A stretch of 48,763 nt of DNA from Alphaproteobacteria bacterium (GTDB taxonomy: Bacteria; Pseudomonadota; Alphaproteobacteria; RF32; CAG-239), in contig JAFUQJ010000051.1 in assembly GCA_017480995.1 (NCBI GenBank), positions 1 to 48,763 on the forward strand, in the 5' to 3' direction. The position numbers and the translations under genes were made by a program. Of the stretch, positions 24,547 to 24,715 are shown in pieces. The notes below the pieces were generated by a model. It was not told the DNA's origin. It worked only from the letters and a program-made list of their open reading frames with translations, and searched no databases. The first letter of the stretch is position 1; each line of letters starts with the position of its first letter.

Positions 24547-24659
24547 GGTGCTTCTGGCAGGGGGCGACTGGGACGATTCCTCGCACTGCGGTTCCCGTTA
24601 TCGCGCTGCGTCTGATCCGCTTTCGGCGGCGTATGTCTTTGTTGGCGCGCGCGGGCGGA
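24547..24659 (+). repeat. orphan VR-like cassette VR2
   Basis: Gapless 113-bp match to sense TR. 21 mismatches, 18 at TR adenines. Shares VR1-specific flanks. Confidence 0.85.
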
Positions 24660-24715
24660 GCCTGCCAAATGGACCTTTCCACCTTGGAGGTGAAAAGGCA
24701 TCGAAATCGACACCT

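Follow-up and report, generated by a model that had tools for sequence, protein, structure and literature searches.

Gene-less variable-repeat cassettes remote from the DGR of an alphaproteobacterial prophage

The prophage and its DGR

The window (the whole stretch of DNA analysed here, 48,763 nucleotides long) comes from a rumen source and is a prophage with a Mu-like baseplate. A tRNA-Met gene (1954-2030) and a 91%-identical partial copy of 57 nt (48669-48725) bracket the element, and by sequence they look like the attL and attR sites of a prophage of about 46.7 kb; in related loci, the integrase adjoins the tRNA side.

A reverse transcriptase (RT) of 347 aa is encoded on the minus strand (6403-7446) and is assigned to the DGR type on its Pfam and PHROG family matches (RVT_1, 3e-18; phrog_1423 reverse transcriptase, 6e-119). 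It adjoins the template repeat (TR; 7607-7719, minus strand), an adenine-rich copy which is followed by a conserved spacer in place of the flank of a variable repeat (VR). The real target of the DGR is an Mtd-like tail-fibre gene of 495 aa (7803-9290, minus strand; Pfam mtd_2nd, 5e-25; phrog_11262 tail protein, 2e-53). The 3' end of this gene carries the expressed variable repeat VR1 (7829-7941, minus strand), which has 17 adenine and no non-adenine mismatches to the TR; the VR1 hairpin is located at 7777-7796, and the 110-nt gap between VR1 and the TR contains no ORF. No avd was recognised near the TR by comparison with Pfam, PHROG and PDB sequences (window 5701-7800, minus strand). Nor did the two ORFs that come next, one of 116 aa across the RT stop (6090-6440) and one of 124 aa, give a Pfam, PDB-sequence or informative PHROG match. 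The whole system in the window is a genuine DGR. In addition, a short ORF at about 7580-7764 (minus strand) has its ATG about 45 nt upstream of the TR, is preceded by a Shine-Dalgarno-like sequence and reads through the TR (MKVLGKYLSRAVHYRVLLAGGNWDNSS...); its start and Shine-Dalgarno-like sequence are kept in the related loci JAFUEX, L081 and L082.

Three further copies of the repeat, VR2, VR3 and VR4, were found 16.6-18 kb from the DGR, in the gap between the genes terL (26100-28028, minus strand) and portal (22134-23588, minus strand). They are inverted with respect to VR1 and the TR, and antisense to the surrounding late genes. The gap also contains three tRNA genes on the plus strand (cluster 23940-24427), a WYL-domain ORF (25147-25677, minus strand) and a 63-aa ORF (24716-24907, minus strand). 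An Rfam search of 23800-26200 returned only the three tRNAs and a sub-threshold match to sRNA-Xcc1, and the cassettes had no match. The sRNA-Xcc1 match lies upstream of the 63-aa ORF (24945-25017, minus strand; 35.6 bits against a gathering score of 53, E = 6e-4). One member of the cluster is a tRNA-like gene (24339-24427, plus strand; Rfam tRNA, 45 bits) with a long variable arm and an abnormal anticodon loop, so that ARAGORN assigns no anticodon; it is kept in relatives of about 70% identity (L001, L083 and L214).

Anatomy and coding status of the cassettes

The core of VR2 (24547-24659, plus strand) corresponds to TR positions 1-113. It aligns without a gap over 113 nt to the sense TR (the reverse complement of 7607-7719) with 21 mismatches; 18 of them fall on the 26 TR adenines, and the remaining three, 54 G>A, 71 T>C and 82 T>G, on the 87 non-adenine positions (Fisher p = 5e-12). 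The first-pass annotation had given the same alignment and counts, which were reproduced exactly, and its statement that the adenine pattern is unlike that of VR1 was confirmed by aligning both repeats to the TR.

The flanks of VR2 are of the VR type. The upstream cctgcat (24540-24546, plus strand) has the counterpart cctgtat at VR1 and is absent from the TR, and fibre-gene homology ends at this flank in all relatives of the window lineage. The IMH-like end (24643-24669, plus strand) is composed of the GC run tggcgcgcgcgggcgg and agcctgccaaa, identical to VR1. This agcctgccaaa follows ggcgcgcgcgggcgg in VR2 as in VR1 and does not occur in the TR, whose end is atacgg; direct reading of the sequence thus upheld the earlier claim of flanks that VR2 shares with VR1 and the TR lacks. 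An alternative TR was considered as the identity of the cassettes and rejected, since they have the VR-type flank and not the conserved TR spacer.

A hairpin (CCTTTCCACC-TTGG-AGGTGAAAAGG; 24674-24698, plus strand) lies downstream of the IMH-like end. It had been noted before and is present by folding, although folding as DNA and as RNA also predicts a competing hairpin at 24660-24691. All copies of the cassette have a hairpin with an outer CTTTT/AAAAG stem, whereas the inner stem differs. The hairpin sits about 18 nt past the GC run in the cassettes and about 36 nt past it at VR1, which was counted against rewriting of the cassettes in place. A second hairpin found by folding, at about 24694-24717, resembles a bidirectional terminator at the end of the converging 63-aa gene. 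It is conserved as AAAGGTGTCGA(A/T)TTCGACACCTTT in JAFUEX and the P0009 lineage, which indicates that the VR2 locus is orthologous across lineages. On the other side, the terminator of the tRNA cluster (24484-24527, stem 24484-24523, plus strand; -26.6 kcal/mol, z = -6.0) is separated from VR2 by about 15-20 nt, in agreement with the described position of VR2 directly after a strong tRNA-operon terminator.

VR3 and VR4, which the first-pass annotation did not mention, are two more cassettes of the VR2 family on the strand of VR2. They form a tandem pair: VR3 (25783-25895, plus strand; hairpin 25911-25932) has 17 adenine and 11 non-adenine mismatches to the TR, and VR4 (25945-26057, plus strand; hairpin 26071-26096), located directly after the stop of terL on the opposite strand, has 13 and 7. 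VR3 resembles the VR2-site allele of two relatives (L088 and L090), and the 3' part of VR4 is identical to the common VR4-site allele of the relatives. Both cassettes are in a common reading frame and are bounded by the stop of terL and the WYL-domain gene's promoter. Tandem pairs at the VR4 site were found in 5 of 28 genomes, the window included; most relatives have one cassette there, with a degenerate 5' part. VR2 had been called an orphan cassette; the description as gene-less holds, but it is one of three and not unique.

In translation, VR2 and VR3 plus VR4 are similar to no more than the C-terminal 35-37 residues of the fibre family (phrog_11262 positions 351-387 of 393); a Pfam search of the ORFs across them gave no match. 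VR2 lies between the tRNA-cluster terminator and the converging small gene. A VR has been defined as lying within a coding sequence (Roux et al., PMC8144416). VR2 departs from this definition, being intergenic, with about 37 codons and no credible start or gene body, in relatives as well; it agrees with a VR in its sequence features, as a TR near-copy with adenine-restricted differences and, on sequence, with an IMH-type 3' end distinct from the TR end and followed by an inverted repeat.

It might be supposed that the ORF across VR2 (24533 or 24545 to 24787), or that across VR3 and VR4 (25577-26092), is a real diversified mini-protein, since the VR reading frame is open in every allele and an ATG is present at 24545. 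However, the open frame is uninformative, because the TR adenines occupy AAY-type codons or third-codon positions, where adenine changes make no stops. The only sense ORF across VR2 is, as previously described, without a Shine-Dalgarno sequence (24533-24787, 84 aa); its GTG start comes directly after an in-frame TAA three codons before it, and its tail, which varies from lineage to lineage, runs into the converging 63-aa gene. Moreover, it would supply only 37 residues of a C-type-lectin-like fold. Gene callers gave nothing credible on the cassette in more than 30 related assemblies, where they predicted either nothing or out-of-frame ORFs starting inside the tRNA. A translated product is hence very improbable. 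The absence of a target gene at VR2, noted in the first-pass annotation, was borne out, and comparison with related prophages, which had been suggested there as a check, revealed neither a full-length gene nor a longer fibre-gene fragment upstream of the cassette in any relative; in each, the homology sets in at the same point, a few nucleotides ahead of TR position 1.

Variation of the cassettes among related prophages

Relatives were found by pattern scans and exact-protein look-ups in ruminant-gut and other gut metagenomes and in MAGs of uncultured Alphaproteobacteria. The comparison set comprised 28 prophage copies of the window lineage (about 95% identical to the window) and 58 orphan cassettes; the flanks of the relatives are mostly 94-99% identical to the window. 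A search of the GenBank phage collection with the region and the TR yielded no relative, only tRNA and terminase matches, and an exact look-up of the 204-aa baseplate protein returned no record.

The TR is invariant in all relatives but one assembly (L108), whereas VR1 differs in almost every genome; the related assemblies contain 10 distinct in-register VR1 alleles, all with 0 non-adenine mismatches. This difference between VR1 and the TR indicates that the DGR is highly active. In the exceptional TR of L108 (1720-1832), the A of positions 13 and 16 is replaced by G and that of position 20 by T, in each case the state of the VR1 of L108, and further A>G changes lie just upstream; this TR is either a VR-to-TR back-conversion or an assembly chimera. 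In two other relatives (L106 and L107), VR1 (1496-1609) begins with CTGCCGGGTGC instead of CTGTATGGTGC, which is the TR's own upstream CCG and changes Met to Arg; information transfer can therefore reach 3 nt past the nominal 5' end of the repeat.

The VR2 site is represented by 25 cassettes with 14 alleles, taken from consensus assemblies that are perhaps mosaics of co-existing variants; the alleles are non-independent. Its variable columns include 24 of 25 TR adenines and 19 of 84 other positions (p = 2e-11), and the mean pairwise difference is 0.166 per site, compared with mostly 1-6% in the flanks. The VR4 site has 17 alleles, with 25/25 adenine and 25/84 other columns variable. The first-pass annotation had proposed that heterogeneity restricted to adenine sites would mark VR2 as a live acceptor, and such heterogeneity was observed between genomes. 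Its reading of VR2 as a competent acceptor stands in this respect; the VR1-like IMH flank on which it also drew is however a recombinant state, present in about 4 of the 25 VR2-site cassettes. The VR2 allele of the window is identical in six assemblies with differing VR1s and carries three non-adenine changes. It is an older allele and not a fresh one, and its constancy against differing VR1s, a point against rewriting in place, indicates that rewriting at VR2 is much rarer than fixation at VR1.

Ordinary DNA exchange between the cassettes is certain from the sequences. One allele with the non-adenine markers 54A/71C/82G is found, depending on the genome, either at the VR2 site or at the VR4 site. 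Directly behind the GC run, a stretch of 9 nt exists in four versions that switch between relatives, hairpins swap between the sites too, and core alleles are shuffled against flank haplotypes. For example, both cassettes of L201 have one unique 3' third in common. The single cassette of L204 (ERZ16268168 scaffold_641, 1988-2100, compared with window 24547-26057) has the VR2 upstream flank and the VR4 downstream flank, and the WYL-domain and 63-aa genes are missing, which is a deletion by direct-repeat recombination between VR2 and VR4. An inversion of the 16.6 kb between VR1 and VR2 was also considered as a programmed switch and was rejected: it would turn the structural operon away from terL, and every assembly has the same arrangement.

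Much of the cassette pattern could therefore come from DNA-level recombination, and the main rival explanation takes this to its end. VR2 would be an inert duplicate of the fibre-gene 3' end, with DNA recombination as its only means of renewal; the diversity would be made at VR1 as the sole true acceptor, and would have reached the orphans by gene conversion from VR1, the TR or other cassettes, including those of co-infecting phages. The non-adenine markers common to different sites, the flank and hairpin swaps, and the L201 and L204 cassettes are all in its favour. So is the VR1-like 3' flank CGGAGCCTG, found in many cassettes though it is not derivable from TR cDNA. The orphans, however, match no sampled VR1 allele beyond chance (the best orphan agrees with a VR1 allele at 17/25 adenine sites, and VR1 alleles agree with one another at up to 16), and the VR1 homology spans only about 130 nt at about 83% identity, a poor substrate for frequent conversion. 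Orphan-type non-adenine markers are likewise absent from all 10 in-register VR1 alleles, which is a small sample.

Several alleles point to the TR as a more direct source. Those of L087, L093 and L204 have 0 non-adenine mismatches in positions 28-109, and their 3' flanks are not VR1-like, which is difficult for conversion from VR1. Two VR2-site alleles with a mutated GC run (L096 and L210) have 11-12 non-adenine mismatches instead, an excess that would be expected once refreshing stops. Five independent nested replaced tracts were distinguished at the VR4 site, starting from positions 80-81, 65, about 45 and 8 and all running to the IMH end. Most of the new differences within them affect adenines, and earlier non-adenine markers have returned to the TR state; the degenerate 5' part persists. 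Replacement polarity toward the IMH end is the polarity known for DGR marker coconversion. Such anchoring of most partial replacements argues against import by conversion alone; the two tracts that are 5'-anchored (in L210 and in the tandem cassettes) fit it better, and were counted against rewriting in place.

The states at single adenines bear on the same question. At position 16, the orphans often have A, the TR state (8 of 20 alleles), or T, whereas all 10 VR1 alleles have G. At position 44, all VR1 alleles and all but one orphan have G, the exception being a TR-state A; a tally of distinct orphan alleles gave G in 20/20. The prevalence of G at position 44 would also fit derivation of the orphans from selected VR1 alleles, and so belongs to the evidence for the rival; the A or T at 16 and the single A at 44 stand against it. 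As a proof of protein-level selection, the G at 44 was rejected. The TR adenines followed by G (positions 13, 16 and 44; window 7707, 7704 and 7676) are strongly G-biased even at the two synonymous sites; they read G in 28 of 30 cells for VR1 and in 45 of 60 for the orphans, without a single C, whereas other adenines have G in about 30% of cells. Since two of the three are synonymous, this looks like a context bias of the RT. Strong context dependence has been published for the RT error profile, as has a near-absence of G misincorporation in the NAG context, with which the G bias here is in line (PMC12875486).

Two other lineages, only about 70% identical in the flanks, were also recovered from a roe-deer MAG contig (JAFUEX010000024.1) and via an 82%-identity GpW homologue. 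In both, a cassette occupies the VR2 position, between the terminator of the odd tRNA and the conserved bidirectional hairpin, despite a divergence of about 30%. At non-adenine sites, the VR2-site cassettes of the three lineages best match the lineage-matched TR (3 against 6 and 8 mismatches, 4 against 5 and 6, and 5 against 7 and 9), the margins being small and an L081-type TR standing in for that of the third lineage, which was not recovered. The core is 94-97% identical to its own kind of TR at non-adenine positions; as a neutral relic would drift with its flanks, this indicates that the cassette has been homogenised with the TR over long times. Cassettes are missing from L001 and L003, on whose contigs no close RT was found, and from another GpW lineage. 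In a self-repeat survey of 80 RT-related IMG/VR loci (+/-4 kb, a flank too short for cassettes 17 kb away), the extra repeats seemed to pair apart from TR/VR, each TR not having been checked.

Taken together, the explanation favoured here, with moderate confidence, is that VR2 is a gene-less but still competent DGR acceptor that is rewritten as a bystander. Import by homologous conversion alone is a possible but less probable account. The alleles do not fully separate retrohoming in place from import of VR1 alleles; for VR2 we infer, from sequence comparison, the former. VR2 would represent, without any gene attached, the minimal target module of the DGR in the Mtd-like tail-fibre gene, made up of the 113 TR-homologous nucleotides, about 7-10 nt upstream, the GC-rich IMH-like end and the downstream hairpin. 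It is inverted with respect to the DGR and lies at a distance of 16.6 kb, and it would be rewritten in trans: the phage RT would copy the single TR into adenine-mutagenised cDNA, which from time to time would replace the sequence of VR2, as happens at VR1. We propose that this happens because the cis elements recognised by the retrohoming machinery are kept. As no protein is encoded, the outcome would be neutral, which would account for slower allele turnover than at VR1 and for a few ordinary substitutions accumulating between rewrites. Each rewriting would reset such substitutions to the TR state, so that the cassette would be self-renewing and would track its own TR in the long term; it may decay once the GC run or the hairpin is damaged. 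At the same time, VR2, VR3 and VR4 undergo ordinary homologous exchange with one another. VR2 itself probably has no function of its own.

Comparison with known systems and biological meaning

From work on the phage BPP-1, such a module should be enough for editing in trans, and an inverted one would be edited at a rate other than that of VR1. The sequence upstream of the VR is dispensable there, the IMH and a downstream inverted repeat suffice to target heterologous DNA, and different stem sequences can be tolerated (PMC3240598); the stem-loop is helpful without being essential (PMC12875486). Editing was also 8- to 44-fold more efficient when the target was co-directional with replication (PMC12875486), an orientation dependence that could explain slower turnover at the inverted cassettes. 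The present system resembles that of BPP-1 (mtd VR with GC14/IMH and stem-loop) in its Mtd-like tail-fibre target, its single TR, the adenine-specific differences between TR and VR, the GC-rich IMH-like end with a flank unlike the TR end, the downstream hairpin, and replacement tracts that are mostly anchored at the IMH end. In BPP-1, however, the module ends a full-length gene, whereas gene body, start and promoter are all missing from VR2, VR3 and VR4; the cassette hairpin is placed differently from that of VR1, and no avd was found next to the TR.

DGRs with several VRs and remote targets are known from Treponema denticola, from cyanobacteria and from gut phages with a second distal VR (PMC4891356, PMC3521204, PMC12629997). 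As in those systems, one RT and one TR would here serve several independently diversified VRs in trans, some of them far from the RT; theirs lie in paralogous full-length genes, whereas the extra VRs described here are intergenic. Truncated 'suspicious' targets have also been listed in Treponema (PMC4891356), and they are likewise short VR-bearing fragments in genomes with a present or past DGR. Those were described as truncated ORFs or as VRs with excess mutations, with no sign of continued rewriting; the cassettes here, in contrast, clearly do not code for protein, vary between genomes at adenine sites and keep their position from lineage to lineage. In engineered reporters, in which the IMH and stem-loop were moved to kanR (PMC3240598, PMC12875486), the cis elements alone define the target, whatever it encodes; VR2 would be a natural case of what was built there artificially. 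No description of intergenic VR cassettes that are still polymorphic at adenine sites was found in the searchable literature.

The cassettes further recall silent-cassette systems. Neisseria pilS and Borrelia vls are silent cassettes that feed an expression site, and VR2, VR3 and VR4 similarly lack a promoter and, as partial copies, reproduce just the segment that varies in an expressed surface protein. The orphans might accordingly store earlier receptor-binding alleles that are copied back into VR1 by gene conversion. Their inversion with respect to the expression site, by which conversion would cause no deletion, their recombination with each other and the retention of a cassette at one locus in three lineages about 30% diverged would suit such an archive. 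No donation to the expressed copy was detected, however, as none of the 10 in-register VR1 alleles carries an orphan-type non-adenine marker, and the diversity comes from reverse transcription and not from cassette storage. Cassettes are freely lost, decayed or duplicated among close relatives, some related phage lineages have none, and self-renewal by retrohoming explains their persistence without selection. An archive is thus improbable, and it and the mini-protein are much less likely than import by homologous conversion. Equally doubtful is the wider proposal that the cassettes are maintained host-range parts, that is, a DGR-written, self-renewing archive or buffer of receptor-binding alleles that are copied back into the fibre gene. 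If an archive did exist, it would combine retroelement mutagenesis with silent-cassette recombination, and the cassettes, as direct repeats, would also make the accessory genes between them excisable.

If VR2 is instead a bystander acceptor, as we favour, the meaning lies in the targeting of DGRs. Their VRs have been defined and searched for as parts of protein-coding targets. Natural and widespread rewriting of non-coding copies would indicate that cis elements alone decide which targets are chosen in nature, and that DGRs can leave self-renewing footprints which standard pipelines discard or mis-call as small genes. Such cassettes would also provide an internal, selection-free read-out of the DGR mutation spectrum, tract polarity and orientation dependence, directly comparable with the selected VR1 of the same genomes. 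Moreover, they are recombination substrates that reshape the accessory region of the phage.
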